From assembly GCA_964597285.1 (NCBI GenBank), contig CAZQYK010000404.1:1-26684 (forward strand): DNA of 26,684 bases, written 5' to 3'. The notes below the pieces were generated by a model. The model saw nothing but the letters and a program-made list of their open reading frames with translations, was not told where the DNA came from and did not search any database. Origin of the DNA: an uncultured Spirochaetales bacterium (GTDB taxonomy: Bacteria; Myxococcota_A; UBA9160; SMWR01). A program made the translations under genes and the position numbers. This document shows positions 8,816 through 23,623 of this stretch, piece by piece. Each line of letters begins with the position of its first letter. Position 1 is the first letter of the stretch.

Positions 8816-8857
8816 CGGAGGGCGTCGCCCCCTCGGTCGCCTGCGGGCGCCCTCTCT

Positions 8858-8960: not shown

Positions 8961-10853
8961 ATGCTGCCCCTGTGCCGCTGTCTCGCCGTCCTCGGCGCCG
9001 GATTCGGGCTCGCAGCCGCGCCCGCACGCGCCGCGGTCTACTACGCCGACCCGCTGACCGGCGACGACGCCGGCCCCGGCAGCGCGGCGAGCCCGTTCCG
9101 CAGCGTCGCCGCCGCGGTGCAGAATCTGCAACCCGGCGACGAGCTGCGCCTCCGCGGGGGGACGTACTGGGAGAGCGGCGTTCGCATCTCGGCGCGCGGT
9201 GACCCCGACGCGCCGATCGTGATCCGCACGGCCCCGGACGCGAAGCCGCGCATCGACGGCGGCTTCCGGGAGTTCCGCAGCCCCGGGAACGATCACTGGG
9301 AGCCCGTCGACGGCGGGCGGCACATCTACCGCTCGAAGCGCCGCTACCCGGACGTCGGCATCGTCCACGGATATCTCGAGCACGGCGGACGACGCTGGCG
9401 GCTCGTGCCGTACGAGTCGTGGCAGGCGTTCTCGACGGACGTCGAGCACTTCGACGAGGATCTCCCGATCTACGTGGGCCAGGGCACCTACTGGAACCCG
9501 TCGGACGAGCGGATCTACGTGCGCCTCCAGCCCGGAGTGCTGCAAATCGAGCAGCAGCGGGGATCTCCCGATCCGCCCGCGCTCGACGCCCGTCAGGCGG
9601 CGCTCGTCCTCTACGGCGACGACGAGGTGGTGCGGATCGACGCCCGCGCGCGTCACCTCGTCCTGGAGGGCCTGGCGATCGTGCACCAGAACAACGCGAT
9701 CGAGATCGAGAGCGGCGCCCACGACGTGACCGTGCGCGACAGCGAGCTCCTCGGCGGCCGCACGCACGTCATCGTGCGCGGAGGCGCCCACGACCTCCGC
9801 TTCGAGCGAGTCGTGATCGACGACGCGGTGCCCCCGTGGATCGCCTGGCAGGACGTGAAGTCGGGCACGCGGCCCGCCCATCTGCTCCAGGGTGCGGCGT
9901 TCAATCTCCAGGACGACGCCCATCACGTGGAGATCTTCGAGAGCACGATCCGCAACGTCTTCGACGGCATCGACGCGACCGGCGAGGCGCACCATCTCAC
10001 CGTGCGCGAGAACCTGTTCGAGGGCATCCGCGACGACTGCTTCCAGCTCGGCTCGGCAGGCTACGAGCACCACGTGCACCACAACCGGATGCTGCGCGTC
10101 TCGAAAGGCGTGAGCCGGCACGGCTCTGGCACGAGCCCGCGGCCCGGCACCACTTTCGTGCACCACAACGTGATCGACGCGAGCGAGCGGATGCAGTACG
10201 GGCGACGCGACGCTTCGGGAGCCTGGCACGGCAAGGCGCTGCGCGGCGGCTCGGAGGGAAAGGTCTGGGCGACGCCGTTCGGCTCGCACACCAGCGACGG
10301 ATTCGGAAGCGGCGACGCGTGGAAGATCTACCACAACACCGTCCTGTTCGGACGCGACATCTCGAACCAGGGCGCGGGCCACACGCGCCCCCGGCGCGCC
10401 GGTGCCGTGCACGAGGTCTACAACAACGTCTTCGTCCAGGTGACCGGCTATCGCATCGCCCGTGAGGCGACTGCCCTCGGCGGACTCCAGGTCTACGACG
10501 GCAATCTCTACCACCGGCGGCTCCACGACCCGGACGAGGAGATCTTCGCGGACTTCGAGCCCGCCGACGGCGGTGCGCCGGTGGACTTCGACGATCTCGC
10601 CGCGTTCCGCAGCTCCGCGTTCCAGCGCGCCACGCGCGCGCACTACGCGCCGGGGTGGGAGGCCAACGGCATCGAGGCCGATCCGCGCCTCGACGCGGCT
10701 TATCGCCCGGCCGCGGACGGACCAGCCGCCGTCGGCGCCGTCGCCCTCCCGGCGGGCCTTCCGGGCGCTTCCGGAGAGAAGTTTCGCGGCGCACTCGCAC
10801 CGGCCGGCAGCGGCAACGTAGGGCGGCCGGGCGCGCCATACGTGGTGGAGTGA
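8961..10853 (+). CDS. Secreted right-handed beta-helix (pectin-lyase-fold) protein; possible polysaccharide lyase or modifier
   Basis: Signal peptide MLPLCRCLAVLGAGFGLAAAPARA, then the GDDAGPGS..PFRSVAAA...PGDELRLRGGTY motif typical of DUF1565/PL9-like N-termini. Repeated beta-helix rungs (NNAIEI, HDVTVRDS, HHVEIFESTIRN, HHLTVRENLF, FVHHNVI, IYHNTV, VYNNVF). Alternative start ATG 8889. Confidence 0.75.
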   Translation: MLPLCRCLAVLGAGFGLAAAPARAAVYYADPLTGDDAGPGSAASPFRSVAAAVQNLQPGDELRLRGGTYWESGVRISARGDPDAPIVIRTAPDAKPRIDGGFREFRSPGNDHWEPVDGGRHIYRSKRRYPDVGIVHGYLEHGGRRWRLVPYESWQAFSTDVEHFDEDLPIYVGQGTYWNPSDERIYVRLQPGVLQIEQQRGSPDPPALDARQAALVLYGDDEVVRIDARARHLVLEGLAIVHQNNAIEIESGAHDVTVRDSELLGGRTHVIVRGGAHDLRFERVVIDDAVPPWIAWQDVKSGTRPAHLLQGAAFNLQDDAHHVEIFESTIRNVFDGIDATGEAHHLTVRENLFEGIRDDCFQLGSAGYEHHVHHNRMLRVSKGVSRHGSGTSPRPGTTFVHHNVIDASERMQYGRRDASGAWHGKALRGGSEGKVWATPFGSHTSDGFGSGDAWKIYHNTVLFGRDISNQGAGHTRPRRAGAVHEVYNNVFVQVTGYRIAREATALGGLQVYDGNLYHRRLHDPDEEIFADFEPADGGAPVDFDDLAAFRSSAFQRATRAHYAPGWEANGIEADPRLDAAYRPAADGPAAVGAVALPAGLPGASGEKFRGALAPAGSGNVGRPGAPYVVE

Positions 10854-10857
10854 ACGC

Positions 10858-12033
10858 ATGGGCTCCACACAGCAGCGACACATCGCCGTCGTCACGAACA
10901 CTGAATGGAATCTGCTCCGCTTCCGCGCCGACCTCCTGCGGGCGCTCGTCTCGAAGGGGTGGTCCGTGGCGGCGGTCAGCGATCTCTCGGAGTCCGGCAG
11001 CCAGATGCTCCGCGCCTGGGGCGTGGAGCCGATCCGCGTGTCGGTCGCGTCGGCGGGCACGAACCCGGCCCAGGACCTGCGCTACCTGAGCGCGCTGGCG
11101 GGCGTGTATCGGCGGCTGCGCCCCGATGTCGTGCACCACTTCTCGATCAAGCCGGTCGTCTGGGGATCGTTCGCGGCGCGCATTGCGCGCGTTCCGGTCG
11201 TGGTCAACGGCGTGACCGGGCTCGGCAGCGCCTACGACTCGGAGCGACGCTGGCTGGCGCGCGTGGTGCGCGGGCTGTATCGCGGAGCGCTGCGGCGCGG
11301 CACCGTCGTGCTCCAGAACGCGGAGGACCGGGCGCGGCTGCTCCGCGACATCGGGCTCGATCCGCGGCGCACCGAGGTGGTTCCCGGCTCCGGCGTCGAC
11401 ACCGACCGTCTCGCTCCGGATCCCGCGCTCCGACCCGAGCAGCGCAGCGAGTTCATCATGGTCTCGCGGATGCTCTGGGCCAAGGGGGTGCGAGAGTTCG
11501 TCGAGGCCGCGCGGCGTGTGGCTCGCGACCGGCCCGCGGCATCGTTCTCGCTCTTCGGCGGCTGCCGCGAGGACTACGGCTCGAAGAACGCCGACTTCGT
11601 GCCCCGCGAGTGGCTCGAGGCGGTGGACCGCGAGGGCGTCGTACGCTGGCACGGACGAACCGCTCCAGACGTGGTGGAGCGCCGCATGCGCGGCTGCGCC
11701 GCGCTCGTCCTTCCCTCGAGCTATCCGGAGGGCATTCCGCGGACCCTCCTCGAGGCGGCGGCGGCCGGCGCGCCGATCATCACGACCGACCGGCCCGGCT
11801 GCCGCGACGCGGTGCTTCCCGGCGTCTCCGGCCTTCTCGTGCCGCCCCGCTCGGCCGAGGCGCTCGCCGACGCGATGCGCCGCCTCCTCGACGACCCGGC
11901 GTTGCGCGCGTCGATGGGCGCACGGGGCCGTCAGCTCGCCGTCGAGCGCTTCGACAGCCGGCGGATCGTCGAGCGCCTGCTGTCGCTCTACGACGCCCCG
12001 CGCGACGCCATCGCCTCGCGCGGAGCGGTTTGA
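10858..12033 (+). CDS. Glycosyltransferase family 4 (CapM/PglA-like)
   Basis: FRADLL, PDVVHHFSIKPVVWG, NGVTGLG, GSGVD, RMLWAKGVREF, PSSYPEGIPRTLLEAAAAG, TDRPGCRDAV (EX7E). Confidence 0.92.
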   Translation: MGSTQQRHIAVVTNTEWNLLRFRADLLRALVSKGWSVAAVSDLSESGSQMLRAWGVEPIRVSVASAGTNPAQDLRYLSALAGVYRRLRPDVVHHFSIKPVVWGSFAARIARVPVVVNGVTGLGSAYDSERRWLARVVRGLYRGALRRGTVVLQNAEDRARLLRDIGLDPRRTEVVPGSGVDTDRLAPDPALRPEQRSEFIMVSRMLWAKGVREFVEAARRVARDRPAASFSLFGGCREDYGSKNADFVPREWLEAVDREGVVRWHGRTAPDVVERRMRGCAALVLPSSYPEGIPRTLLEAAAAGAPIITTDRPGCRDAVLPGVSGLLVPPRSAEALADAMRRLLDDPALRASMGARGRQLAVERFDSRRIVERLLSLYDAPRDAIASRGAV

Positions 12034-13124
12034 CCGAGGCGGATCGCCTGGGGAAGGGGTTCGCGAGGCGCTGGACGAACCGTTCCGAGCATCGCGACCA
12101 GCAGCCAGAGGGTCGAGAATCGCAGCCCCTGGTGCGTGACCCCGTAGAGGAACGACGGCACGAGGAAGGCCAGCCCGTACGCTCCGACGCGCCGCCCGAG
12201 CCCGAGCAGGAACGCTCCGAACAGCCCCGCGCCGACGACGCCGTAGCTGAAGACGAGCGTGCCGGGAGTCGAGTGGAACTCCGCGTCGTCCCAGCGGCGG
12301 AAGCGCTCGTAACCCCCCTCCCCGGCGCCGAGCACGAGGTGCTCGGGGTGCTTCCACAGGCGGTCGTAGCCGCGCGTGACGAGGTTGTCGTCCGCCTGGT
12401 CACCGAGACCCGCGATCCGCGCTCGCACCCGCTCGTAGAGGGCGGTTTCGCCCATCAGCGTCACGACGACGAGCGCGGCGAGCATCGCCGGCGCGAGCCG
12501 CTCGGGCCGGCGCACCACCGCGAGCACGAACAGCACCGCGAGCGCGATCAGCGCCGCCTTCGACAGCGACAATGCCACGAGGTAGAGCACGGCGAGCGAG
12601 AACGGGATCTGCCAGCGCAGGCCGACCGGCGCCCTCAGCGTGCAGACGAAGAAGATCGAGCCCGACAGCAGCGCCCAGTAGCCGAGCTGGTTGGGGTTGT
12701 TGAAGAACAGCATGCCGCGGTTCGCGCCCCCTCCGCCGAGCGTGAGTGCGAGCGCCAGCTGGACGAACACCGCGAGCCACGTGCTCCACATCACGACCCG
12801 AACGAATCGGTCCCGGTGGATCGAGTAGAGCCGGAACGCGAGGAAGACGAGCGCGAAGTTGTAGAGGTAGAAGAGGGGCGGAACCAGGAACTCCGGATCG
12901 GCGCGATACGTCGCCCAGGCGACGTTGACCGCGGCGGTCCAGACGGCGAACAGGCCCGCCCACAGCACGATCGGCAGCGCGCCGCGGTCGAGCGGTCCGC
13001 TCGGCCGGACCAACGCGATCGCGACCGCGAGCGTCAGGAACGCGTCCGCCACCTGGGGCAGCCCGCTCGGGAAGAGATAGAAGGGCTTCAGGACGAGATA
13101 GAGTGCGAGCAGGATCAGAGGCAT
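11988..13124 (-). CDS. Wzy-like polysaccharide polymerase / O-antigen ligase family membrane protein
   Basis: MPLILLALYLVLKPFY...; about 10 hydrophobic segments, FNNPNQLGY, LSLSKAAL, and HST..TLVFSYG after a periplasmic loop. C-terminal half of track ORF 11988..14369. Confidence 0.8.
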   Translation of the reverse strand: MPLILLALYLVLKPFYLFPSGLPQVADAFLTLAVAIALVRPSGPLDRGALPIVLWAGLFAVWTAAVNVAWATYRADPEFLVPPLFYLYNFALVFLAFRLYSIHRDRFVRVVMWSTWLAVFVQLALALTLGGGGANRGMLFFNNPNQLGYWALLSGSIFFVCTLRAPVGLRWQIPFSLAVLYLVALSLSKAALIALAVLFVLAVVRRPERLAPAMLAALVVVTLMGETALYERVRARIAGLGDQADDNLVTRGYDRLWKHPEHLVLGAGEGGYERFRRWDDAEFHSTPGTLVFSYGVVGAGLFGAFLLGLGRRVGAYGLAFLVPSFLYGVTHQGLRFSTLWLLVAMLGTVRPAPREPLPQAIRLGQTAPREAMASRGAS

Positions 13125-14470
13125 CGGAAGGCCTCGGCCGCACGCGCGCGGATCGACATTGCGTTGATCCCGGCCGAGCACACCAGATCGGCGACCGCCG
13201 CGGCCACGCCGACCCAGGCGGCGCCCAGGATCCCGTGATCGGGAATCCAGAGCGCGCTCGCCGCGAGCGCGACGACGGCGACGACCACGTGATTCACGAG
13301 GTGGGCGCGGAACCGGCGCGCGGCCGTGGTGCCGAAGTGCAGCATCGACGCGACGTAGCGGATCAGCGCTCCGAACATCACCCAGACGAAGACGTCCGCA
13401 TGCCGCCCGTAGTCGCTGGTGTAGAGGAGCGTCAGTACGGGCGCGCCCGCGACCCACGCGACGGCGAGCCCGACGACGCCGAAGAAGATCCCGATCAGCG
13501 ATACCCGCGCCAGCAGCGAGGCGAAGGCGCGCGTGTTCCCGCTCGCGTACAGCCGCGCGAGCCGGGCGACCGCGGAGTGGCCGAGCCCCTGCACGAGCTC
13601 GTTGCCGGCGGCCGCGATGTAGATCATCGCCGCGAAGTAGCCGAGCTCCTCGAGCCCAGTGCCCTGGGCCAGGAAGAGCCTCGGCGTGCTCTGCTGCAGC
13701 GAGAAGAGCGCGCCGGCGATCCCGAGCGGCAGCGTCTGGCGCGTCAGGCGCCACAGCCGCGCGCGCTGCCAGCTCGGCGACACCGAGGCGTGGGCCTCGC
13801 CCTCGCGATGCCGCAGCACGCGCCGGCCGAGCGGGATGTCGTGGACCGCGAGCACGGCGACCGACGCCAGCGCCATGCCGAGCACGCCGACCCAGAGCCG
13901 CCCGGTGGCGATCACGCCGGCCGCCAGCAGCGCCACCGACGCCACCCCGCGCAGGACCAGCGAACGCGCCACGTGGTCCATGCGTTCGTAGAGCTGGAAG
14001 CATGCGTGGAAGACCTCGCCGACCGACGCAAAGGACCGCGATGCGCCGATCAGCGCGATGACGATCGCCGTCTCGATCCCGTGGCCGAGGCTCGCTCCGA
14101 TCCCGGCGATCACGACCACCGAGGCGAGGCTCGCGAGCGAGCGGAGCCCCATGTACTCGCCGAAGGGATGCGCGCGCTCGACGTCGGTGGCCTGCGCGTG
14201 CCGCAGCCCGAGGTTCGAGAACTTGAAGACCGGCATCGTGATCGCCAGCGCGAGACCGAGCTCGCCGACCATCGCGGGCGAGCCGAGCTTCGCGAGAACG
14301 GCCAGCGTGCCCCACTGCGTCGCGATGTAGACGAGCCGACCGGCGGTGATCCACGAGAAGTTCTTCCACAGCGAGAGCGAAGCCGTCCCGCGGCCCGCGA
14401 TCCTCCGATCGCCCGGTGCCGGCAGCGCGGGCTCCCGCTCGGACGCCGTGGCGCCGGAGTGCGGATGCAC
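13115..14470 (-). CDS. Wzx flippase (polysaccharide biosynthesis / MOP family)
   Basis: GTG start after GGAG. NFSWITAGRL...LAKLGSP..VGELGLA..., GLRHAQATD, many TM helices. Overlaps the wzy start by 10 bp. Confidence 0.88.
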   Translation of the reverse strand: MHPHSGATASEREPALPAPGDRRIAGRGTASLSLWKNFSWITAGRLVYIATQWGTLAVLAKLGSPAMVGELGLALAITMPVFKFSNLGLRHAQATDVERAHPFGEYMGLRSLASLASVVVIAGIGASLGHGIETAIVIALIGASRSFASVGEVFHACFQLYERMDHVARSLVLRGVASVALLAAGVIATGRLWVGVLGMALASVAVLAVHDIPLGRRVLRHREGEAHASVSPSWQRARLWRLTRQTLPLGIAGALFSLQQSTPRLFLAQGTGLEELGYFAAMIYIAAAGNELVQGLGHSAVARLARLYASGNTRAFASLLARVSLIGIFFGVVGLAVAWVAGAPVLTLLYTSDYGRHADVFVWVMFGALIRYVASMLHFGTTAARRFRAHLVNHVVVAVVALAASALWIPDHGILGAAWVGVAAAVADLVCSAGINAMSIRARAAEAFRCL

Positions 14471-14472
14471 GA

Positions 14473-15852
14473 TCAGACTCCCGGCCGCGTCACGACCGTC
14501 TGCACGGTCTTGAGCACGACGTACGCGTCGAGGGCCAGGGAGGCGTTCTCGAGGTAGTAGAGGTCGTGGCGGAACTTCTGCGCCTGCTCCAGCTCCGAGC
14601 CGGAGTAGCCCTGCCGCACCTGCGCCCATCCCGTCAAGCCGGGAGTCGCTGAAAAGCGCGCCTCGTAGAAGGGGATCGACTTCGTCAGCCGGTCCGCGAA
14701 ATGCGCTCGGATCGGGCGCGGACCCACGAGCGACATGTCGCCGCGCAACACGTTCACGAGCTGCGGCAGCTCGTCGAGGCGCAGCTTGCGCAACACGCGC
14801 CCGACGCGCGTGATGCGCGGATCGTCCTCCGAGGCCCAGCGCGGACCGGAGAGACGCTCGGCATCCTGGACCATCGTGCGGAACTTGAGACAGACGAAGG
14901 GGCGGCGGCGCCGACCGAGCCGCTCCTGCGCGAACAGAGCCGGCCCCTCGCTCTCGAGCCGCACGGCGAGCGCGATCAGCGCCATCACCGGCGCCGCCAC
15001 CAGCAGCCCGAGCGAGGCGCCCACCACGTCGCAGGCGCGCTTCGCGCCCGGACGGAAGCGCCGCGGCGCACGGCCGCCGGGGAGGAGCGCGCGTGCGATG
15101 CGACGCGCGTCGACCGCGTGCTCGGGCACGCAGCCGGTGAGCTCCGCCTCGAGCGTCGAGAGGTCCCAGACCTCGACGCCGGCGAGGCGCAGGTCGATCA
15201 GGCGTGCCACCGCTTCGCCGGAGAGCACGAGCCCGGTGTCGATCGCGACCGCGGCGAAGCCGCCGTTGCGGAGCAGCTCCTCCGCGGCCTCGGCCTGCGC
15301 CGGCTGCGTGCCACCGGCGGGAGCGACGTCGAGGATCGGCCCGAGTGCGTACTCGCTCGACGCCTCGCCGGAGAGCGCGGCAACGAGCCCCTGGACGCGC
15401 GCGCGCGATCCGATCGCGGCGAGGCGGCGGGCCCGCCAGCTCCCGACCCACCGGCGCAGCACCGCCCGGCTCGCGAGCGAGAGGCCGAGCAGCAGCGGAA
15501 CGTGTGCGAGCAGCGCCGCGACCTCGATCCGGTCTTCGGCGAGCAGCGGCACCGACGCGATCGCCGCCGCGGACAGCGGGACGAGGCGCCGCCGGTGCCG
15601 AGCCGACGCGCCGCGAGGGGTGACGCCGTGCAGATCGAAGGCATAGAGCGCAGCGAGGTGGAGTGGGATCACCAGCGCGCTCGCGCGGGCCGCGAACGCC
15701 AGCGCTTCCTGCGCTTCGAGCTCCGCCGCGGACGCTCCGGGAAGCACACCGGCCAGCGTCCGTGCCGCGGCCAGCGCGATCGGCACCGCCAGCGCGTCGA
15801 GGGCGAGCGCGAGCGCCGCGGCGCGGCGGCGTCGGGTCCAGAAGCGGCTCAC
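14473..15852 (-). CDS. Priming polyprenyl glycosylphosphotransferase (WcaJ/EpsB-like, long form)
   Basis: GTGA overlap with the upstream stop. N-terminal TM helices, then Bac_transf motifs KRACDV, KFRTM, DPRITRVGRVLRKLRLDELPQL, GDMSLVGPRP, PGLTGWAQV. Confidence 0.93.
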   Translation of the reverse strand: MSRFWTRRRRAAALALALDALAVPIALAAARTLAGVLPGASAAELEAQEALAFAARASALVIPLHLAALYAFDLHGVTPRGASARHRRRLVPLSAAAIASVPLLAEDRIEVAALLAHVPLLLGLSLASRAVLRRWVGSWRARRLAAIGSRARVQGLVAALSGEASSEYALGPILDVAPAGGTQPAQAEAAEELLRNGGFAAVAIDTGLVLSGEAVARLIDLRLAGVEVWDLSTLEAELTGCVPEHAVDARRIARALLPGGRAPRRFRPGAKRACDVVGASLGLLVAAPVMALIALAVRLESEGPALFAQERLGRRRRPFVCLKFRTMVQDAERLSGPRWASEDDPRITRVGRVLRKLRLDELPQLVNVLRGDMSLVGPRPIRAHFADRLTKSIPFYEARFSATPGLTGWAQVRQGYSGSELEQAQKFRHDLYYLENASLALDAYVVLKTVQTVVTRPGV

Positions 15853-16883
15853 GGGTCGGGCGCGCCGACGGCCGCGGCGCCGGCCTGACTCTCTCGTACG
15901 CCGCGCTCGACGAACCAACGCACCGTGCGGTCGAGACCGTCGGGCAGCGGCGTCCGCGCTCTCCAGCCGAGGCGCCGCCGGGCCTTGGTCGTGTCCGAGT
16001 AGTTGCGGCGCACGTCGCCTACGCGCGGCCCGCGGCAGACGAGCTCGGCGCGCGGTACGCCGTAGCGCACGAGCGTCTTGCGGAGCAGCGCGACGAGCTC
16101 CCGGACGGTCGTCTCGCGTTCCGTCGCGATCTGGAACACCTCGCCGCCGACGTTCGCGGTCGTGCCCGCGGCGCGGATGGCCTCGACGAGATCGTCGACG
16201 TACACGTAGTCGCGGGTGTTTCCCCCGTCGCCGTAGATCTCGAGTGGTCGCCCCCGCAATGCGCGGCCGATGAAGCGCGCGACGACGCTGCCCTTGTGCG
16301 CCGAGCCGGGCCCGTAGACGTTGCCGAAACGCAGCGCGACCGTCTCGAGGCCGAAGCTGTGGAAGTAGGCAGAGCAGTAGCCCTCGCACGCGAGCTTGCT
16401 GGCGCCGTAGGGCGAGGCCGGCCGACACGGTACCTCCTCGTGCAGCGGGGGCTCTCGATCACCCACCGGTGCGCCGCTCGACGCGAAGACGAAGCGTCGG
16501 ACGCTGGCGAGGCGTGCCGCGTCGAGGTACGAGAGCGTCCCGAGCACGTTCACCGACAGGTCGCGCGCCGGATCGTCGACGGACTGCTGCACTCCGGTGC
16601 TCGCGGCGAGGTGGACGATCACTTCCGCGCCTTCGACCGCTCGCTGGGCGGCCGTGCGATCGCGCACGTCGCTGACGAGCAGCTGCACCCGCCCGGCGCA
16701 CCAGCGGGGCGCCGCAACCGACGCCCGCGCGTCGACGCGATCGACCTCGGACGTCGCGCCCAGGGTCGCCGCGCTTCCGACCGACAGGTCGTCGACGACG
16801 CGCACGGCGGCGCCCTCGCGCGCCAGAGCGCGCACCAGCGCCGAGCCGATGAAGCCGCATCCCCCCGTGACGAGCCAACGCAT
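15849..16883 (-). CDS. NAD-dependent nucleotide-sugar epimerase/dehydratase (extended SDR, GalE/WbpP-like)
   Basis: MRWLVTGGCGFIGS, IVHLAA, ASSGA, YGASK, LRFGNVYGP, RDYVYVDD. Start coupled by a TGATG overlap to the sqdB-like gene. Confidence 0.93.
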   Translation of the reverse strand: MRWLVTGGCGFIGSALVRALAREGAAVRVVDDLSVGSAATLGATSEVDRVDARASVAAPRWCAGRVQLLVSDVRDRTAAQRAVEGAEVIVHLAASTGVQQSVDDPARDLSVNVLGTLSYLDAARLASVRRFVFASSGAPVGDREPPLHEEVPCRPASPYGASKLACEGYCSAYFHSFGLETVALRFGNVYGPGSAHKGSVVARFIGRALRGRPLEIYGDGGNTRDYVYVDDLVEAIRAAGTTANVGGEVFQIATERETTVRELVALLRKTLVRYGVPRAELVCRGPRVGDVRRNYSDTTKARRRLGWRARTPLPDGLDRTVRWFVERGVRESQAGAAAVGAPDP

Positions 16884-18031
16884 CACGACCAGCGCACCCG
16901 CGGGTGGATCTTCTGCGTGTCGATGCGATCGGCGTAGCGACCCACCGTGCCGAGCATTCCGGTCACGGTTTCGTCGTCGATCGGGTGAGGTCGCAGGCCC
17001 AGCTCGAGCAATCCGGAATGCGCCGGGTTGTAGTAGTGGTCCTCCTTCTCCTTCCGCGGGTTCTGGATGTGCTCGATCTTGACGTCCATGCCCTGGTCGC
17101 GGCCGACCCGCGCGACGCGCTCTGCGAGCTCGTTGACCGAGAACACCTCGGTGAACTGGTTCAGGATGCGCAGTTTGCCGCGCTCGACGGGGTGGGCGAG
17201 CGCGAGCTCGACGCACTGCATCGTGTCCTTCAGGTTCAGATAGCCGCGCCTCTGATTCCCCTGCCCGTAGACAGTCAGCGGCACGCCCGACACCGCCTGG
17301 ACGAGGAAGCGGTTGACCAGCGTTCCGAAGATGTCGTCGTAGTGGAAGTTCGGCAGCAGCGCGTCCGGGAGATCCACGTCCTCGACGCACAGTCCGTACA
17401 CGGGGCCTTGCATCAGGTCGGTGACCCGGATCCCGTAGATCCGCGTGTAGAACCACAGCAGATCCGTGTCGAGCACCTTCGTCGTGTGGTACAGCGAGCC
17501 GGCCGCCCGGGGGAACAGGAAGCGGTCCTTCCGGCCGCGGTGCTCGATGTCGATCCAGCCCTCCTCGATGTCGATGTCGGGCGTCCCGTACTCTCCCATC
17601 GTTCCGAGCTTGACGATGTGACAGTCCGGCGCGTGCCGGAGCACCGACCAGATCAGGTTGAAGGTGACGTCGAGGTTGTTGCGCAACGTGAGCCTCGCCT
17701 CGTCGAAGCCGATCATCGAGTAGGGGGCCGACGGCTGCTCCGCGTAGTGCACGACTCCGTCGGGCTGGAACTCCTCGACGACGCGCGCGAGGAACGCCGG
17801 ATCTGCGCAGTCGCCGACCCGCACGTCGATGCGGTGACCGCTCAGCGCCGCGAACTGCTCGGCGCGCGCCGGCAGCGACGGCGTGGGGAACAGCGGCTCG
17901 GAACGCGTCTGGAGCGCCATCGTGCGGCGCAGGTAGTTGTCCACCGCGCACACCTCGTGCCCGGCGCGGGCGAGGTGCATCGCCGTGGGCCAGCCGAGAT
18001 AGCCGTCTCCGCCGAGGATCAGGACTCTCAT
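16883..18031 (-). CDS. sqdB: UDP-sulfoquinovose synthase (SqdB/SQD1/Agl3 family)
   Basis: MRVLILGGDGYLGWPTAMHL..., VDNYLRR, VVHYAEQPSAPYSM, HIVKLGTMGEYGTP, IEEGWI, YHTTK, TDLMQGPVYG, YDDIFGT..NRFLVQA, PLTVYGQGNQRRGYL, NQFTE, NPRKEKEDHYY. These match SQD1-family signatures along the whole 382 aa. Confidence 0.9.
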   Translation of the reverse strand: MRVLILGGDGYLGWPTAMHLARAGHEVCAVDNYLRRTMALQTRSEPLFPTPSLPARAEQFAALSGHRIDVRVGDCADPAFLARVVEEFQPDGVVHYAEQPSAPYSMIGFDEARLTLRNNLDVTFNLIWSVLRHAPDCHIVKLGTMGEYGTPDIDIEEGWIDIEHRGRKDRFLFPRAAGSLYHTTKVLDTDLLWFYTRIYGIRVTDLMQGPVYGLCVEDVDLPDALLPNFHYDDIFGTLVNRFLVQAVSGVPLTVYGQGNQRRGYLNLKDTMQCVELALAHPVERGKLRILNQFTEVFSVNELAERVARVGRDQGMDVKIEHIQNPRKEKEDHYYNPAHSGLLELGLRPHPIDDETVTGMLGTVGRYADRIDTQKIHPRVRWS

Positions 18032-19101
18032 GCGATCTCTCCCAGTTGCAGGTTCCGTCGATCCGGAGCGAGTCGCGCGGCTCGGGCCTCGTCCACCTCG
18101 AGCAGGCCGCGGTCGATCAGGAAGCGGCGGAGCTGGATCCGGCTGAGCGGCGCCTCGAGCCGCGAGTTGTACGCGCGCGCGACCGGCTGGTGTCCGTTCC
18201 GACGCAGCGCAGGAGGAACCGCGATGTAGGCGCCGATGTCGTACGCCCGCTGGCTCTCCTCCTCCGTCAGCAGCTCCTCGTAGAGCTTCTCGCCGGGGCG
18301 CGCGCCGATCTCGCGGATCTCGACGTCCGTCGGATCGAGCCCGACGCTGGGGGCGAGCTCCTCGATCATCACGTGCGCCAGGTCGACGATCGCGGCGACC
18401 GGCATCTTCGGAACGAAGACCTCGCCGCCCTCGGCGAGCGGCGCCGACTCCATCACGAGCTTCACGCTCTCGTTGAGCCCCATGATGAAGCGCGTCATCG
18501 AGCGGTCGGTGATCGTCACGGGCCCGCCGGCCTCGATCTGCTTGCGGAAGAGCGGGATCACCGACCCGCGGGAGCCCAGGACGTTTCCGAAGCGGGTCGA
18601 CGAGAAGCGGCACCCGGAGCCTCGCGTGAACTGGTTCGCCGCGCTCATCAGCCGCTCGCACATCAGCTTCGAGCTGCCCATGACGTTCGTCGGGTTCACC
18701 GCCTTGTCGGAAGAAGTCAGGCAAACCTGCCGCACCCCGTTGGCGACCGCGGCGTCGATCGCGTTCTGCGTGCCGATCAGATTGCACTGGAGCGCATCTC
18801 GCGGAGAGCGCTCGCAGATCCCGACGTGCTTCAGCGCGGCGCAATGGAAGACGATGTCGACGTCCCGGAAGCGCTGGACGAGCGTGTCGCGGTCGCGGAC
18901 GTCGGCGAGGAAGAGATCGACCGGATCGTCGGCATGTGCTTCGTCGAGGAAGAACAGCTCGCTCTCGTTGTTGTCGAGACCGATCACGCGGACGTCGGAG
19001 ATGCGCACGAGCTGGCTCAGGAGCTCGTGACCGACCGTTCCGGTCACGCCGGTGATCAGGATCGTCTTGCCGGAGAAGTGCGGGTGCGGCAGATGGCTCA
19101 T
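18028..19101 (-). CDS. UDP-N-acetylhexosamine 4,6-dehydratase (Polysacc_synt_2; CapD/CapE/PglF catalytic-domain-like, soluble)
   Basis: ILITGVTGTVG, VFHCAALKHV..CE, SSDKAVNPTNVMGSSK, RFGNVLGSRGSVIPLF, MTRFIM, IGARPGEKLYEEL. ATGA overlaps at both ends. Confidence 0.92.
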   Translation of the reverse strand: MSHLPHPHFSGKTILITGVTGTVGHELLSQLVRISDVRVIGLDNNESELFFLDEAHADDPVDLFLADVRDRDTLVQRFRDVDIVFHCAALKHVGICERSPRDALQCNLIGTQNAIDAAVANGVRQVCLTSSDKAVNPTNVMGSSKLMCERLMSAANQFTRGSGCRFSSTRFGNVLGSRGSVIPLFRKQIEAGGPVTITDRSMTRFIMGLNESVKLVMESAPLAEGGEVFVPKMPVAAIVDLAHVMIEELAPSVGLDPTDVEIREIGARPGEKLYEELLTEEESQRAYDIGAYIAVPPALRRNGHQPVARAYNSRLEAPLSRIQLRRFLIDRGLLEVDEARAARLAPDRRNLQLGEIA

Positions 19102-21320
19102 GCCGAGGGTCCCATCGAGTCCGGCTCGCGCTGGACCGCGTCGAGATCGTCGGGGTCGTAGTCGTCCGCGTCGCGAGTCCGCCCGCGGTTGACGACGGTT
19201 CCCAGCACGGTCGCGTTGACGCGAACGAGTCGACGGTGGGCCTTGAACACGATCGGACGCGGAGCGCGCCGTGGATCGACGACGACGATCACGCCGTCGA
19301 CGAGCGTCGACAGCACCACCGCGTCGCTGACCGGAATCAGCGGCGGCGAATCGATCAGGACGTAGGCGTAGTGCTGGCGGAGATAGCCGAGGATCTGCTT
19401 CATGCGGTCGGATCCGAGCAGCTCGGTCGGCTTCGAAGCCGGCATGCCGCTCGGCAGGAAGTCGATCGTCGCGTCCTGGATCTCGAGCTTGTGGAGCTGC
19501 GGAAGCGTGCCCGACAGCGCCTCGCTGAGGCCGGGAGTCGGAGGCAGTCGCAGCAGGCGCTGACAGCTGGAGCGCCGCAGATCCGCGTCGATCACCAACA
19601 CCGGCTCGCCGAGGTGTGCGAAGAGCGCGGCAGTATTCAGCGTCGTGGTCGTCTTGCCCTCGCCGTGAACCGAGCTCGTGAACAGGATCACGCGTTGAGT
19701 CTCGTCCGCCTGCGCCAGCAGCACGCCGGTGCGGATCGCGCGGTAGGCCTCGCTCGCCGCCGAGAAGGGATCGCGCGAGACCGCGAGCGCTCGACTCGGA
19801 GGATCCCAGTTGCGCCCGACCATCGCGCCGAGCAGCCGGCGGGTTCGCGACGGAAGCCGGGGGCGGCTGCCGCGGCCCAGGCGCGCGAAGTCCGGCACCA
19901 CCCCGAGCGCGGGAATGCCGAGGTAGCGCTCGAGCTCCTCGGGCGTGCGAACCGTGTTGTCGAGGTATTCGACGGCGAAGGCGATTCCCGACCCGAACGT
20001 GAGACCGAGCGCCAGCGCCAGCGCCAGGCTCAGCGCCGTGCGCGGGTGCGAAGGCGCCTCGGGCGTGAAGGCCTCGTCGATCACCGTCACGTTCGAGGCC
20101 TGCACGTCGGAGGCGACGCCGAGCGCGAGCATGCGCTGGCGGACCTCCTCGTAGAGCTGCCGATTCGCGTCGACCTCTCGCTCGAGTACCGCGTATTGGA
20201 CGCCCTCGTCCTTGAGCGCGAGGACGCGATCCTTCTGCTCGTCGAACCGTGCGCGCAGCACGTCCTCGTGCTGGCGAGCCTCCTCGAAGGAGGAGCGCGT
20301 CGACGCCACGAGCGCGGAGATCTCGTGTTGCAGGCGTCCGCGCAGGCGCTGGATCTTCGCCTCCTGATCGCGCGGCCACAGAGGGTTGCCGTCGCGCTCC
20401 AGGTTCGCGGTGCGCGCCGCGAAGTCGGCCTCGAGCATCGCGAGGTGCTCCTTGAGGCTCGCGACCAGCGGGCTCGACACGACCGCGGGGATCGACTCCG
20501 GATCGCGCGAGCTGCCGACCGTCGCCACGGACTCGCGCGCGATGCGCTCCGCCTCGGCTTCGGCCAGCTTCTGGTTCAGCGCCACGAGATGCTCGACCAG
20601 GACGTTCTCGCGGTCGTCGAGCGAGAGGATGCCGTGCTCGCGCCGGTACGCGTTGAGCTCGCGCTCGGACTCGTCGACCCGTTTCGCGAGCCGCTCGAGA
20701 TTGCGAGCCAGGAAATCGCGCGAGTCCTCGAGCGACTGGCGGCGCAGTTCGAGCGCCCGGATCATGTACTCCTGCGCGTGGGTGGCGACGACGCGCGCCG
20801 ACAGCTCGGGGTCGGGGCTCGTGAACGTGACCCGGACCAGCCGGCTCTCCGGATAGGGCTCGACGCCGAGCCAGTCCTCTGCGTACTCGTCCAGGAAGTC
20901 GGCCGAGATCGGCCGCTTCGCTTCCGCGACCTCCGGCTCCGAACTCGTCCAGCCGCCGAGATGCTCGCCGAGCGCCGCGCGGAACGCGTCCGAGCGGGTG
21001 TGGAACTGGGAGGGCGCGAGACCCTCGCGCTCTACCACGGCGCGCGCCAGGCTGCGGCTGCGCAGGATGTCGTACTGCGTCATGTAGTAGTCCCGCGCCT
21101 CGTCCGACGAGAGGTCGAGCGCGCGGGCGGACTCCAGCTGCTCTTCGGGCTCCGGCTCGATCAGCAGCACGACCTCGGCGGTATAGAGGGGCGTGGCGAG
21201 TGACACGTAGAGCCCCACCACTCCGACGCACGCCGCGGCGACGAGCAGGATCAGCCCTCGACGCTCCCTCAGGATCCTCCCGAACGCCCGGAGATCGGGA
21301 CCGAACTCGTAGTCCTGCAC
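19098..21320 (-). CDS. wzc: Wzc polysaccharide co-polymerase / BY-kinase (GumC/Wzc family)
   Basis: GTG start after GGAGG. Two TM segments flank a coiled-coil periplasmic domain; EAYRAIRT, Walker A SSVHGEGKT, A' IDADLRR, Walker B LIDSPP. Confidence 0.92.
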   Translation of the reverse strand: MQDYEFGPDLRAFGRILRERRGLILLVAAACVGVVGLYVSLATPLYTAEVVLLIEPEPEEQLESARALDLSSDEARDYYMTQYDILRSRSLARAVVEREGLAPSQFHTRSDAFRAALGEHLGGWTSSEPEVAEAKRPISADFLDEYAEDWLGVEPYPESRLVRVTFTSPDPELSARVVATHAQEYMIRALELRRQSLEDSRDFLARNLERLAKRVDESERELNAYRREHGILSLDDRENVLVEHLVALNQKLAEAEAERIARESVATVGSSRDPESIPAVVSSPLVASLKEHLAMLEADFAARTANLERDGNPLWPRDQEAKIQRLRGRLQHEISALVASTRSSFEEARQHEDVLRARFDEQKDRVLALKDEGVQYAVLEREVDANRQLYEEVRQRMLALGVASDVQASNVTVIDEAFTPEAPSHPRTALSLALALALGLTFGSGIAFAVEYLDNTVRTPEELERYLGIPALGVVPDFARLGRGSRPRLPSRTRRLLGAMVGRNWDPPSRALAVSRDPFSAASEAYRAIRTGVLLAQADETQRVILFTSSVHGEGKTTTTLNTAALFAHLGEPVLVIDADLRRSSCQRLLRLPPTPGLSEALSGTLPQLHKLEIQDATIDFLPSGMPASKPTELLGSDRMKQILGYLRQHYAYVLIDSPPLIPVSDAVVLSTLVDGVIVVVDPRRAPRPIVFKAHRRLVRVNATVLGTVVNRGRTRDADDYDPDDLDAVQREPDSMGPSA

Positions 21321-21375: not shown

Positions 21376-21563
21376 AGGCCGGCCGCCCCCGACGGAGAGA
21401 GTGCGATTCGCCGGGAGCCCACTGGCGCGCAGGCGCACTCGGAACGGACTCGCGATCGCAGCCGCGTCGCGAAGCTTTGTAGAACGTTCCCGGATTCGTC
21501 CATGAAACGCCTCGAAAGATCCTCCAGTCCGCCTTGGAGCCGCCTCGGAAGGTGCCCTTTCCT

Positions 21564-21579
21564 TGGCACGCGTCTCGCA
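21564..21579 (+). promoter_or_regulatory. Sigma-54 (-24/-12) promoter of the kinase-GT4 pair
   Basis: TGGCACG-CGTC-TCGCA; the ATG follows at 21594. Confidence 0.7.
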
Positions 21580-21593
21580 GACCGGCCAGCGCG

Positions 21594-22418
21594 ATGCCTA
21601 CACGCTCCCGCGACAGCTTCGTCGTCGAGTTCGTGGGTCTGCCGGGAGCCGGGAAGTCGACGCTCTCCCACGCGGTGGCCGAGCTGCTGCGAGCGCGTGG
21701 CGAGCGGGTCAGCGAGCCCACCTACGACCTCACCCGGCGTTCGACCTGGCTCTGGAAGCGGCTGCAGAAGCTGCGCTACGCCGGCGCGATCGCGCTGGGC
21801 CATCCGCTCTGGACGGCCGCCACGCTGCGCCGAATCCGCGCGACCCGGCAGCACAGCGTCAACGACCTGCTCGCGACCTCCTTCAACCTGCTCTTCGTCT
21901 GCGGGCTGCTCGCGCGCGTCTCCCGCCGGCCCGGCATCCACCTGATGGATCAGGGCTTCTTCCACGCGCTCTGGTCGATCGACTTCAGTGCGCGCGCCCC
22001 CGAGCGGCTCGTCGACGTGCGCGTGCACGCGCGCGGCGGCTCGTTGTTGACCCGCGCGGACCTGGTCGTGATGCTCGACGTGCCGAGCGACACCGCGGTG
22101 TCCCGCATGGCCGCTCGGGTGGGCACGCAGAGCCGGCTCGAGTTCCTGATCCCGTCGCCGGACTTCGCGAGCCACCTCGGCGCCGCGCTGCGCGCGCTCG
22201 AGCGGCTCCGGGATCGGCTCGACGACCTCCAGCGCAGAGGTCTGCCCCTGGCGATCGAGCGCCTCGACGACGACGGGCGCGGCGCGCTCGAGAGCCACGC
22301 GCGCTGGACGGCCGATCGGATCCTCCGCAGCCGGGACCGCGCGTTCGAGCCTGCGCTCGCGAACGGATCGCCCGCCCTCGACTCCGCCGGCTCCGCGCTG
22401 CCGAGGCGCGCCGTTTGA
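21594..22418 (+). CDS. P-loop kinase, thymidylate-kinase-like fold, substrate unknown
   Basis: VVEFVGLPGAGKST Walker A; LMDQG at the position of the TMK DR motif; DLVVMLDVPSDTAVSRMAAR resembles the TMK lid region. Confidence 0.7.
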   Translation: MPTRSRDSFVVEFVGLPGAGKSTLSHAVAELLRARGERVSEPTYDLTRRSTWLWKRLQKLRYAGAIALGHPLWTAATLRRIRATRQHSVNDLLATSFNLLFVCGLLARVSRRPGIHLMDQGFFHALWSIDFSARAPERLVDVRVHARGGSLLTRADLVVMLDVPSDTAVSRMAARVGTQSRLEFLIPSPDFASHLGAALRALERLRDRLDDLQRRGLPLAIERLDDDGRGALESHARWTADRILRSRDRAFEPALANGSPALDSAGSALPRRAV

Positions 22419-23623
22419 ACGCGCCGCAGGCCACGGCCTGGACGCAACCCCCGGGGGCCGAACGCCCGATCCGCGTTCTGCACGTCCTGAACGCCTTGAA
22501 TCCCGGCGGCGTGCAGTCGGGACTGCTCCAGACGTTCCCGTTCCTCGACCGCGAGCGCTTCCGCATCGATCTGATGACTGGAAGCCCCCATCCGGACCGC
22601 CGCTTCCAGGCCGCATTCGAGCGGATCGGCGTACACGCGGTCCACGCGAGATACCGCGAGCGTCCCCTCTCGTTCTTCGGCGACTTCGCGCGGCTGCTCC
22701 GCGAGCGCGGCCCCTTCGACGTCGTCCACAGCCACATGCGGCACTACAGCGGCGTCGTGATGCGCTGGGCAGCTCTGTGCGGCGTCCCGCACCGGATCGC
22801 GCACGCCCACAACGACCTGAGCGTCTGGATCGCGGAAGCGGGCCTTCGCGAACGCGTCGAGTTCGCACTCGCCCGACGCTGGGTCCGGCGACACGCCACC
22901 GCGTGGCTCGCCGTGAGCCGCGAAGCGGGCCGCAGCCTCTTCGGCGCCGACTGCGAACGCGATCCCCGTTGGTGCCTGGCCCCGAGCGGGATCGATCTGG
23001 AGCCCTTCGAGCCGACGTGGGACCGCGCCGCGGTTCGGGCGGATCTCGACATCGACGACGCGGCGCTGGTCGTGGGCCACGTGGGCCGATTCCACCCGCA
23101 GAAGAACCACCGCTTCCTGATCGAAGTCTTCGCAGAGGTTCGCAGGCGAGCTCCGAAGGCTCGGCTCGTCCTGGTGGGTGAGGGCGAGGCCGAGTCCGAG
23201 GCGAGGCGGCGCGCCGACGAGCTCGGCGTCGCCGACGCGGTCTCGTTCCTCGGCGTCCGCTACGACGTCCCGCGCCTGATGCAGGGCGCATTCGACGTGT
23301 TCGTGCTTCCGTCCCGCTTCGAGGGCCTTCCGCGCACCGTGATCGAGGCCCAGGCATGCGCGCTGCCGTGCGTGATCTCGAACGGCGTCACGCGCGAGGC
23401 CGACGCGCTGCCGGCGCTGGTGACCCGGCTCGGACTGGGCGACCCGCCGGATCGCTGGGCGCGCGAGGTGATCGCCGCGGCGGCGCGCCCGCGGCCGATC
23501 GAGCGCTGCGCGGCACTCGCCGAGATCCGCCGCATGCCGCTCGAAGCCCACCAGATCGCGGCCACGCTCGAGCGAATCTACTCGGCGTGTGAAGGCGCGC
23601 GCGCCGGGCCGGATCCCGGCTAG
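22415..23623 (+). CDS. Glycosyltransferase family 4 (CapH/EpsF-like)
   Basis: TTGA overlap with the kinase stop. RVLHVLNALNPGG, DVVHSH, IAHAHN, GHVGRFHPQKNHRFL, FLGVRYDV, PSRFEGLPRTVIEAQACALP. Confidence 0.9.
   Translation: MNAPQATAWTQPPGAERPIRVLHVLNALNPGGVQSGLLQTFPFLDRERFRIDLMTGSPHPDRRFQAAFERIGVHAVHARYRERPLSFFGDFARLLRERGPFDVVHSHMRHYSGVVMRWAALCGVPHRIAHAHNDLSVWIAEAGLRERVEFALARRWVRRHATAWLAVSREAGRSLFGADCERDPRWCLAPSGIDLEPFEPTWDRAAVRADLDIDDAALVVGHVGRFHPQKNHRFLIEVFAEVRRRAPKARLVLVGEGEAESEARRRADELGVADAVSFLGVRYDVPRLMQGAFDVFVLPSRFEGLPRTVIEAQACALPCVISNGVTREADALPALVTRLGLGDPPDRWAREVIAAAARPRPIERCAALAEIRRMPLEAHQIAATLERIYSACEGARAGPDPG

Follow-up and report, generated by a model that had tools for sequence, protein, structure and literature searches.

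Sulfoquinovose is regarded as a product of phototroph membranes and of a few archaeal N-glycans, an origin that is taken for granted in models of its global cycling. The classical role of sqdB in bacteria is the synthesis of the sulfolipid SQDG, for which SqdX serves as a GT4 glycosyltransferase. Motifs have been defined for UDP-sulfoquinovose synthases (PMC4388408, PMC8987622), and the R101A mutation abolishes the activity of one of them, Agl3 (PMC4388408). A route of sulfofucose biosynthesis is still missing (PMC12421959), and a 2026 review of bacterial sulfoquinovose cycling never mentions polysaccharides. Our own literature search found no paper tying sqdB to bacterial polysaccharides, in keeping with the preliminary description of this locus, which held that such a pathway was little characterised. 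Here, we describe an SqdB homologue encoded in a Wzx/Wzy operon; judged from its genomic context, the sulfonated sugar that it is predicted to make is likely to enter the polymer.

We performed codon-model gene calling and Pfam/NCBIfam scans on the window, that is, the whole 26.7-kb stretch of DNA that was analysed. Positions 11988-21320 hold exactly seven consecutive genes in the order previously described (wzc, dehydratase, sqdB, epimerase, PGT, wzx and wzy, the last a probable assignment), and the strand of all seven is corrected to minus. The two GT4 genes mentioned earlier fall outside this span. The features are as follows:

19098..21320, minus strand: wzc, 740 aa, polysaccharide co-polymerase fused to a P-loop (BY-kinase-type) domain (Pfam Wzz, GNVR, AAA_31)
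18028..19101, minus strand: dehydratase, 357 aa, soluble Polysacc_synt_2 SDR, probably a UDP-HexNAc 4,6-dehydratase (PF02719 E 7e-93)
16883..18031, minus strand: sqdB, 382 aa, UDP-sulfoquinovose-synthase homologue of the Pro101 type (1QRR, NF041015)
15849..16886, minus strand: SDR, 345 aa, extended SDR, 4-epimerase or 4-ketoreductase (Pfam Epimerase E 1.5e-56)
14473..15852, minus strand: PGT, 459 aa, priming polyprenyl-phosphate phosphoglycosyl transferase, large Bac_transf type (PF02397 E 3e-64)
13115..14470, minus strand: wzx, 451 aa, flippase candidate (PF01943, ~12 hydrophobic segments)
11988..13124, minus strand: wzy, 378 aa, probable polymerase (Wzy_C sub-threshold, ~10 hydrophobic segments, directly after wzx)
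10858..12033, plus strand: GT4a, 391 aa, PglA-like glycosyltransferase (Pfam GT4/GT1 domains, PDB 8DQD)
22415..23623, plus strand: GT4b, 402 aa, GT4 glycosyltransferase (Pfam GT4/GT1)
8862..10853, plus strand: beta-helix protein, 663 aa, secreted right-handed beta-helix, candidate polysaccharide lyase/hydrolase (weak Beta_helix, Chondroitinase_B)
21552..22418, plus strand: P-loop protein, 288 aa, divergent from wzc (P-loop only)

The operon genes are tightly coupled. Start and stop codons overlap as ATGA at the wzc/dehydratase and dehydratase/sqdB junctions and as GTGA at the sqdB/SDR and SDR/PGT junctions; the sqdB/SDR overlap can alternatively be read as TGATG, so the ATGA and TGATG overlaps reported earlier are indeed present. 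A 2-nt gap lies between PGT and wzx, wzx and wzy overlap by 10 nt, and the operon is kept in an 86%-identical relative. Among the assembly proteins, Wzc scored 125 bits against TIGR01007 (cutoff 108) and carries the Walker A motif GEGKT; inspection of its sequence found no C-terminal tyrosine cluster. PGT scored 312 bits against TIGR03025 (cutoff 296) and has four hydrophobic segments. Wzx matched PF01943 at 28.2 bits, exactly at the cutoff, and is 71% identical to its orthologue in a related locus, L002. The match of Wzy to Wzy_C was sub-threshold (E 1e-3), and the L002 orthologue matched across the same residues at E 1e-5. On balance, we read the locus as one for Wzx/Wzy-dependent synthesis of an exopolysaccharide or capsule in a Gram-negative host, probably an uncultured member of the Myxococcota. 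Its nucleotide-sugar module is a conserved cassette that would supply two unusual sugars.

The SqdB homologue matches Arabidopsis SQD1 over its whole length (1QRR; residues 2-381 versus 3-382, 49% identity, E 3e-123), as expected from its previous designation as a full-length SqdB/SQD1-family protein. This identity is higher than the 44% between SQD1 and the SqdB of S. meliloti, which is reportedly required genetically for SQDG. Its best NCBIfam model was NF041015, the UDP-sulfoquinovose synthase equivalog, at 450 bits against a cutoff of 575 bits; this cutoff shuts out proven enzymes, since SQD1 scored 483 and S. meliloti SqdB 332 bits. The NAD site reads GGDGYLG at residue 7, and T144, M145, E147, Y148, S179, Y181, H182, K185 and Q208 are conserved. 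In family numbering, the Thr145/Tyr182/Lys186 triad, the [ST]MG motif with Glu148/Tyr149 (here TMGEY) and His183 are present.

The sole departure from the catalytic set is residue 100, a proline where the family has Arg101. The arginine is found in SQD1, Agl3, S. meliloti SqdB, Loktanella and an Acidimicrobiia clade. Among the 120 closest homologues, nearly all carry proline at this position, as do 77 of 86 locus matches and 80 of 103 aligned family sequences, where it is the majority state. Phylogeny placed the window SqdB in a clade separate from SQD1/SqdB, and the enzymes with experimental backing all belong to Arg-type clades; a literature search found no characterised Pro-type enzyme. Beside Gln209, the window clade shows two more changes, reading Met-Gln-Gly-Pro as opposed to Asn/His-Gln-Gly-Val/Ile in SQD1/SqdB.

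These differences raise the possibility that the Pro101-type protein adds no sulfite and is an SDR whose reaction ends at a product such as UDP-glucose-5,6-ene or a 4-keto/6-deoxy sugar, giving a polymer free of sulfonate. It is favoured by the replacement, here and throughout the clade, of an arginine that is essential in Agl3, by the changes beside Gln209, by the confinement of experimental backing to Arg-type enzymes, and by the release of UDP-Glc-5,6-ene from Agl3 when sulfite is withheld. However, all remaining catalytic and motif residues are conserved, and the window SqdB is closer to SQD1 than is a proven bacterial SqdB. Because proline is the majority state of the family, its presence is unlikely to signal lost function. 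We consider a sulfite-free product unlikely and infer that the window SqdB probably uses sulfite, within a clade that departs from every characterised synthase at Arg101.

A neighbourhood survey for sqdB with wzx/wzy, as the preliminary description had suggested, showed the dehydratase-sqdB pair recurring in glycan loci of many phyla. We compared 64 related loci from at least eight phyla, using 51 long loci for counts in the wider neighbourhood. A dehydratase orthologue directly adjoins sqdB in 60 of the 64 loci, and an SDR orthologue (at least 45% identity) lies no more than two genes from sqdB in 26. Glycan-assembly genes were present within 8 kb in at least 40 of the 51 long loci, the neighbours including GT4/GT2, Wzx, Wza, Wzc and ABC-2 genes. 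Profile scans found no Poly_export/Wza exporter gene in the 26.7-kb window; Wza adjoins the cassette in 12 related loci. Cultured carriers include Rubrobacter marinus SCSIO 52915, Parahaliea maris HSLHS9 and Methylomonas subterranea SURF-2, and carriers as a whole span, among others, the Chloroflexota, Acidobacteriota, Alpha- and Gammaproteobacteria, Gemmatimonadota, Actinomycetota and probably Myxococcota. Far from being incidental neighbours, the dehydratase and epimerase form part of a conserved cassette, so that a 2-acetamido-2,6-dideoxyhexose is probably present in the repeat unit as well.

No sulfite-generating gene was found inside the window. In eight related loci from four phyla, the cluster includes a gene for APS/PAPS reductase (motifs ECGLH and CC..CxxC), an enzyme that yields sulfite. 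The naive binomial P for this co-location is ~1e-7, or 3e-3 to 4e-4 when only four independent events are counted. The presence of these genes beside the cassette is a further argument against the sulfite-free reading.

The best PDB match of the dehydratase was 6BWC (E 5e-78), which we take to be Pen and which ranked above FnlA, CapE, FlaA1 and PglF. The motifs nevertheless speak against a Pen-type UDP-GlcNAc 5,6-dehydratase, being SDK (residue 131) and MGSSK (residue 141) in the window protein versus SNA and YGATK in Pen. For the SDR, which has YGASK at residue 160, the top PDB matches were the UDP-Glc/HexNAc 4-epimerases 4ZRM, 7YS8, WbgU and WbpP. A DegT aminotransferase gene lies beside the dehydratase in 10 loci, in several of them with an acetyltransferase as well; there is a trend for the SDR and DegT to be mutually exclusive partners of the dehydratase (p = 0.06). 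In 15 of the 51 loci, the surroundings of the pair revealed no finishing enzyme, and other oxidoreductases are present in some of these.

This arrangement could also reflect a Pen/Pal-like relay in series on UDP-GlcNAc, in which the dehydratase makes a 5,6-ene or 4-keto-5,6-ene and the SqdB-type enzyme adds sulfite and reduces C4, giving, for example, UDP-6-sulfo-QuiNAc. The adjacency of the two genes in nearly all loci across phyla, including the 15 lacking a detected reductase or aminotransferase, fits such a relay, as does the closest solved relative, since Pen passes its ene intermediate to a second SDR. By motif register, the Arg101-to-Pro site presumably corresponds to the glycine position of the UDP-GlcNAc-specific epimerase WbpP, which also counts in its favour. 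However, the SDK...MxxxK motifs agree with complete 4,6-dehydratases (FnlA, CapE, PglF) and differ from the SNA...YxxxK of Pen, the DegT and acetyltransferase partners resemble a normal bacillosamine-type pathway, and Glu147 and Tyr148, with which SqdB would itself carry out dehydration, are retained. Other oxidoreductases in some of the apparently partnerless loci also weigh against the relay, and a literature search found no such sulfonated amino sugar. We regard this route as distinctly improbable and favour two separate nucleotide-sugar branches.

GT4a converges on wzy with a 46-nt overlap and has a 76%-identical orthologue at the same position in L002. Across residues 9-379 it matched PglA (PDB 8DQD) at E 5.5e-36, the next match being at E 5e-12; this PglA-like character makes an undecaprenyl-PP-linked 6-deoxy-HexNAc its probable acceptor. 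GT4b matched TIGR03088 below the cutoff (E 1.6e-38), and its PDB matches were generic GT4 proteins only. The two had been described as CapM- and CapH-like and not lipid-directed. The second point holds for GT4a. The label "CapM-like" is unfit for a GT4, since Cap5M is a phosphoglycosyl transferase (PMC11626204), and the closest solved relative of GT4a is PglA. The beta-helix gene lies 4 nt upstream of GT4a; its product has a signal-like hydrophobic segment at the N-terminus and a 77%-identical L002 orthologue annotated as Pel9A-like_beta_helix. The gene for the 288-aa P-loop protein overlaps the start of GT4b by 4 nt. Only the P-loop of this protein matches APS or nucleotide kinases, weakly, and tblastn found a 72%-identical orthologue beside wzc in L003.

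The GT4 genes also bear on whether SqdB serves ordinary SQDG synthesis and sits in the operon by chance, with one GT4 acting as an SqdX-type lipid glycosyltransferase. The classical role of sqdB and the GT4 nature of SqdX speak for this, and the generic, weak matches of GT4b include the lipid-acting PimB' and MGlcDAG synthase. Against it, sqdB overlaps glycan genes at both its start and stop codons, GT4a is PglA-like, and the cassette stands in glycan loci in most relatives. No sqdD/sqdC-type lipid gene set was found at the window locus or among the annotated neighbour families of related loci. Proven lipid-type loci belong to separate Arg-type clades and are organised otherwise, with sqdD/sqdC-type neighbours: S. 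meliloti has sqdB with a glycosyl transferase, and in Loktanella a set of sqdB, a GT and an oxidoreductase lies next to phn genes. The Acidimicrobiia-type sqdB is without a dehydratase partner. A purely sulfolipid role for the window SqdB is very improbable.

In the pathway that we propose, sulfite from assimilatory sulfate reduction would be accepted by UDP-glucose: SqdB would oxidise C4 with NAD+, dehydrate across C5-C6, add sulfite to C6 by Michael addition and re-reduce C4, yielding UDP-sulfoquinovose. The Polysacc_synt_2 enzyme would convert UDP-GlcNAc to UDP-4-keto-6-deoxy-GlcNAc, whose sugar, as such or in reduced form, the priming transferase would load onto undecaprenyl phosphate. In a known precedent, the priming sugar is itself a dehydratase product and is reduced afterwards on the lipid carrier (PMC11626204). 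The downstream SDR would finish the lipid-linked sugar to QuiNAc or FucNAc, like WreQ of Rhizobium etli, or may instead 4-epimerise UDP-sulfoquinovose to UDP-sulfofucose. GT4a would place the second sugar on the Und-PP-linked 6-deoxy-HexNAc and GT4b would add another, one of the two being the sulfosugar transferase. Wzx would then flip the unit, Wzy polymerise it, and Wzc set chain length and export. Counting against this pathway are, above all, the proline in place of Arg101, and further the lack of sulfite-generating and Wza genes in the window, the marginal Pfam matches of Wzx and Wzy, an SDR/DegT exclusivity that amounts to a trend, and the 15 loci in which the pair has no detected finishing partner.

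Candidates for the sulfonated sugar are sulfoquinovose, sulfofucose (its 4-epimer) and a sulfonated HexNAc. Tentatively, the dehydratase-SqdB(-SDR) cassette may be a widespread, uncharacterised route to C6-sulfonated surface-glycan sugars whose product is not plain sulfoquinovose: the coupled 4-epimerase could give UDP-sulfofucose, or a Pen/Pal-like relay could give a sulfonated amino sugar, for instance 6-sulfo-QuiNAc. The Pro101 SqdB would then constitute an enzyme class devoted to glycans and set apart from the Arg101 lipid/N-glycan type.

Since the cassette recurs in glycan loci of many phyla, uncharacterised bacteria may build C-S-bonded sugars into their coats and not into membrane lipids alone. 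If so, the sulfosugars of soils, sediments and oceans would have a second, heterotrophic origin in the capsules, exopolysaccharides or O-antigens of non-phototrophs from many phyla. These would form a new class of polymers, permanently anionic and resistant to sulfatases, the cassette would offer a concrete candidate for sulfofucose biosynthesis, and family biochemistry to date would have sampled only the minority Arg101 branch.

Compared with known systems, the window protein resembles SQD1/SqdB in its full-length homology, NAD-binding motif, TMGEY, Y-H-x-x-K and Gln209, but its partners are a Polysacc_synt_2 dehydratase and glycan-assembly genes in place of sqdX or sqdD/sqdC. As with Agl3 of Sulfolobus acidocaldarius, the sulfosugar would enter a polyprenyl-linked surface glycan and not a lipid; Agl3 serves AglB-dependent protein N-glycosylation, whereas the window system is bacterial, with Wzx/Wzy/Wzc polymerisation. 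The Bacillus thuringiensis Pen/Pal pair, a relay via UDP-GlcNAc-5,6-ene, likewise has a second extended SDR encoded beside the dehydratase, though in the window this second enzyme is SQD1-like and not Pal-like. The Campylobacter pgl and Rhizobium etli Wre systems lead from a UDP-GlcNAc 4,6-dehydratase through a 6-deoxy-HexNAc priming sugar to a GT4. Features in common with them are the Polysacc_synt_2 dehydratase, either an SDR or an aminotransferase/acetyltransferase pair, the Bac_transf primer and the PglA-like GT4. The locus differs from them in that its primer is of the large WbaP-like form and in that the dehydratase and SDR genes have between them an SqdB homologue, nearly always dehydratase-linked.

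At ~72% GC, raw ORF lists of the window were mostly shadow frames, and a GC3 filter on these ORFs missed the entire operon because long ORFs fused real genes with shadow frames. Genes were resolved by codon-usage segmentation with a model trained on confident genes, and seven consecutive minus-strand genes were found to fill 11988-21320 exactly. Two GT4-family glycosyltransferase genes, GT4a and GT4b, lie beyond this span.

Genes of the operon, in order, and the two GT4 genes
19098-21320, minus strand: operon gene 1, wzc
18028-19101, minus strand: operon gene 2, Polysacc_synt_2 SDR (dehydratase)
16883-18031, minus strand: operon gene 3, sqdB (382 aa)
15849-16886, minus strand: operon gene 4, second SDR
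14473-15852, minus strand: operon gene 5, Bac_transf priming transferase (PGT)
13115-14470, minus strand: operon gene 6, wzx
11988-13124, minus strand: operon gene 7, polytopic membrane protein, probable wzy
10858-12033, plus strand: GT4a, converging on wzy
22415-23623, plus strand: GT4b, in the unit divergent from wzc, after a gene for a 288-aa P-loop protein

The first four operon junctions are, in order, ATGA, ATGA, GTGA (which can also be read as TGATG) and GTGA; given these start/stop overlaps, the preliminary description was correct in calling the operon translationally coupled. At the last two junctions the genes are 2 nt apart and overlap by 10 nt, respectively. The convergent wzy (minus strand) and GT4a (plus strand) share 46 nt at their 3′ ends (11988-12033), and a promoter and terminator scan gave no signal above background. 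Since the named relatives of the window's GlmS are Myxococcota MAGs (84-85% identity), the window probably comes from an uncultured Gram-negative member of the Myxococcota. Elsewhere in the window, a small minus-strand cluster (23859-26434) encodes an R2-like ligand-binding oxidase/DUF455-like protein, a TetR regulator and a fatty-acid hydroxylase-family protein, and appears separate from and unrelated to the glycan operon. The HflX call (4171-5886, plus strand) carries an N-terminal extension of ~200 aa ahead of the HflX domain, and its start codon is uncertain.

The window SqdB aligned along its full length with Arabidopsis SQD1 (1QRR; E value 3 × 10−123, 49% identity), which, together with the gene segmentation, confirmed the earlier observation of a sqdB gene within this Wzx/Wzy operon. 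The same alignment ruled out a second enzyme of the L-FucNAc pathway of the CapF/WbjC/FnlB type. The sole strong NCBIfam match of the window SqdB was the UDP-sulfoquinovose synthase model, at 450 bits against a curated cutoff of 575 bits. SQD1 (483 bits) and the SqdBs of S. meliloti and Loktanella (~330 bits) also miss this cutoff, which is therefore uninformative for the window SqdB, and we rejected the low score as evidence against function.

We surveyed 80 related loci from species-representative genomes, with SqdB 65-72% identical to that of the window; 64 had both flanks present. A dehydratase orthologue (47-60% identity) immediately adjoined sqdB in 60 of these 64, and an orthologue of the downstream SDR lay within two genes of sqdB in 26. 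The dehydratase and sqdB genes, with or without this SDR, thus form a conserved cassette. Its carriers include Chloroflexota, Acidobacteriota, Alpha-, Gamma- and ‘Delta’-proteobacteria, Gemmatimonadota, Actinomycetota (Rubrobacter), Bacteroidota, Nitrospinota and Zetaproteobacteria. Outside the cassette the loci vary, and what surrounds it is glycan machinery throughout: GT4, GT2, Wzx, Wzy_C, Wza, Wzc, Bac_transf, ABC-2/Wzt pairs, DegT aminotransferases, acetyltransferases, UDP-sugar dehydrogenases and methyltransferases. Genes of these kinds occur within 8 kb in at least 40 of the 51 long loci. The closest relative (86% identity) keeps the same operon and flanks, comprising wzc, dehydratase, sqdB, SDR, PGT, wzx, wzy, GT4a and a beta-helix protein. 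In the window, sqdB (GC 0.667) and the dehydratase gene (GC 0.672; together 16883-19101) are lower in GC than the flanking housekeeping genes (~0.72), which fits a horizontally mobile cassette. A search of plasmids gave only matches below 48% identity to the cassette-type SqdB, none of them a close relative. One Mariprofundaceae MAG holds two cassette copies (loci L010 and L018). In L018 the SDR gene is followed by an additional sqdB-like gene (344 aa, 35% identity). A PF03601 (Cons_hypoth698, YeiH-like) membrane protein recurs beside the cassette in three loci (L005; L085, 7138-8223; L086, 5772-6857).

Could the cassette enzymes have lost the use of sulfite? The window SqdB retains the GGDGYLG NAD motif and Thr144, Met145, Glu147, Tyr148, Ser179, Tyr181, His182, Lys185 and Gln208. 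One residue differs: the window SqdB has Pro (HYAEQPSAP; residue 100) in place of the Arg101 of SQD1 and Agl3 (EQRSAP). An alternative reading, in which such Pro-type enzymes add no sulfite, draws on the inactivity of the Agl3 R101A mutant (PMC4388408). Pro is also found in nearly all of the 120 closest homologues and in 77 of 86 locus hits, and it is the majority state (80 of 103) in an alignment made up mostly of family-wide representatives at 50% identity; we rejected the idea that it is a unique anomaly. Arg occupies the position in SQD1, the S. meliloti and Loktanella SqdBs and one Acidimicrobiia clade. A neighbor-joining tree without bootstrap placed the Arg-type enzymes mainly in two clades that hold all experimentally backed members, and the cassette-linked proteins in one tight Pro-type clade.

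Against a loss of sulfite use stands the presence of a CysH-type APS/PAPS reductase, with ECGLH and CC..CxxC motifs, inside the cluster in eight loci from four phyla (L005, L014, L023, L025, L027, L037, L054 and L079), where it often adjoins a further SDR ~30% identical to that of the window. Reductases of this type produce sulfite. The co-occurrence has a naive binomial P of ~1 × 10−7, or 3 × 10−3 to 4 × 10−4 when only four independent events are counted. In our view, no other indirect evidence speaks as strongly for continued sulfite use by Pro-type enzymes; an APS/PAPS reductase gene is absent from the window. At a Chloroflexota locus (L020), a Sulfotransfer_1 gene (12794-13681) lies two genes downstream of sqdB, and the glycan there may combine a sulfonate with a sulfate ester.

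The best PDB match of the dehydratase was 6BWC (E value 5 × 10−78), ahead of FnlA, CapE, FlaA1 and PglF. We take 6BWC to be Pen, the UDP-GlcNAc 5,6-dehydratase of B. thuringiensis. This match raises the alternative that the dehydratase and SqdB act as a Pen/Pal-like relay on UDP-GlcNAc, yielding a sulfonated amino sugar, and in 15 of 51 loci no finishing enzyme was indeed detected nearby, although other oxidoreductases or a GT2/flippase-like pair are present at some of these. Unlike Pen, with its SNA...YGATK motifs, the window enzyme has SDK (residue 131) and MGSSK (141), the complete UDP-HexNAc 4,6-dehydratase type. A DegT aminotransferase accompanies the dehydratase in ten loci, several of which also have an acetyltransferase, as in bacillosamine pathways; mutual exclusivity of SDR and DegT was not significant (p = 0.06). 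At three loci of different lineages, an LPG_synthase_TM (flippase-like) protein and a GT2 follow the cassette (L035, 9271-11267; L040, 11216-13231; L069, 11211-13081), which suggests a polyprenyl-phosphate-sugar route there, not Wzx/Wzy.

The downstream SDR resembles 4-epimerases such as GalE, WbgU and WbpP, but a 4-ketoreductase is just as plausible. In Rhizobium etli, what the priming transferase truly uses is UDP-4-keto-6-deoxy-GlcNAc, the product of the dehydratase, and reduction of the 4-keto sugar by the SDR WreQ takes place on the lipid carrier (PMC11626204). Alternatively, the SDR would epimerize UDP-sulfoquinovose to UDP-sulfofucose, a sugar for which no biosynthetic pathway is known (PMC12421959).

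GT4a matched PglA over its full length (E value 5.5 × 10−36; next match 5 × 10−12). PglA itself transfers the second sugar onto Und-PP-diNAcBac. Those GT4s found repeatedly next to the cassette elsewhere (clusters c3 and c15) were not PglA-like in a PDB search, and the PglA link is therefore limited to GT4a and its orthologue. A secreted beta-helix protein (8862-10853, plus strand), whose orthologue is Pel9A-like, ends 4 nt upstream of GT4a; the pair is kept in the related locus L002, and the protein may serve as a depolymerase of the polymer, itself possibly sulfonated. The gene for the 288-aa P-loop protein (21552-22418, plus strand) runs 4 nt into the start of GT4b, and a 72%-identical orthologue (tblastn) lies divergent from wzc in another related locus, L003. 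The protein shows similarity to others solely in its P-loop, and weakly, with APS kinases and other nucleotide kinases matching best; its single-sequence AlphaFold model was unusable (pLDDT 36). It may act on the glycan as a kinase or a sulfur-related enzyme. Wzc carries Walker A, A′ and B motifs and one Tyr in its last 40 residues, without the C-terminal tyrosine cluster typical of BY-kinases.

The most economical reading is a three-part scheme, in which the dehydratase with the SDR would supply a reducing-end 6-deoxy-HexNAc, SqdB would supply a sulfosugar and GT4a would extend the Und-PP-linked primer. We infer that the dehydratase and sqdB travel together because both supply a conserved glycan core. 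That a sulfonated sugar enters the Wzx/Wzy polymer seems to us somewhat probable; this interpretation, already offered in the preliminary description, is supported by gene context and comparative genomics. The SqdB family and the Wzx/Wzy pathway are each known separately; what is new is their combination, the conserved cassette and the uncharacterized Pro101 enzyme type. A full-text literature search, outside which most subscription journals fall, with closer reading on Agl3 biochemistry, nucleotide-sugar dehydratases, sulfofucose and sulfoquinovose cycling, found neither this cassette nor a link between sqdB and bacterial polysaccharides; the 2026 review on cycling is entirely silent on polysaccharides. 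Cultured carriers exist (Rubrobacter marinus SCSIO 52915, locus L043; Parahaliea maris HSLHS9, L083; and Methylomonas subterranea SURF-2, L074), which makes the sulfonated-polymer reading directly testable.

A role of this sqdB in ordinary SQDG synthesis was ranked least likely on gene context. In Acidimicrobiia, Arg-type sqdB has no adjoining dehydratase gene; what comes after it in every case is a conserved ~360-aa protein without a Pfam match (L089-L091, about 8229-9333), which could be an unrecognized sulfoquinovosyl transferase. The lipid-type loci likewise differ from the cassette loci: in S. meliloti, a gene for a small glycosyl transferase comes after sqdB, and in Loktanella, sqdB, a glycosyltransferase and an oxidoreductase adjoin phosphonate-uptake genes.
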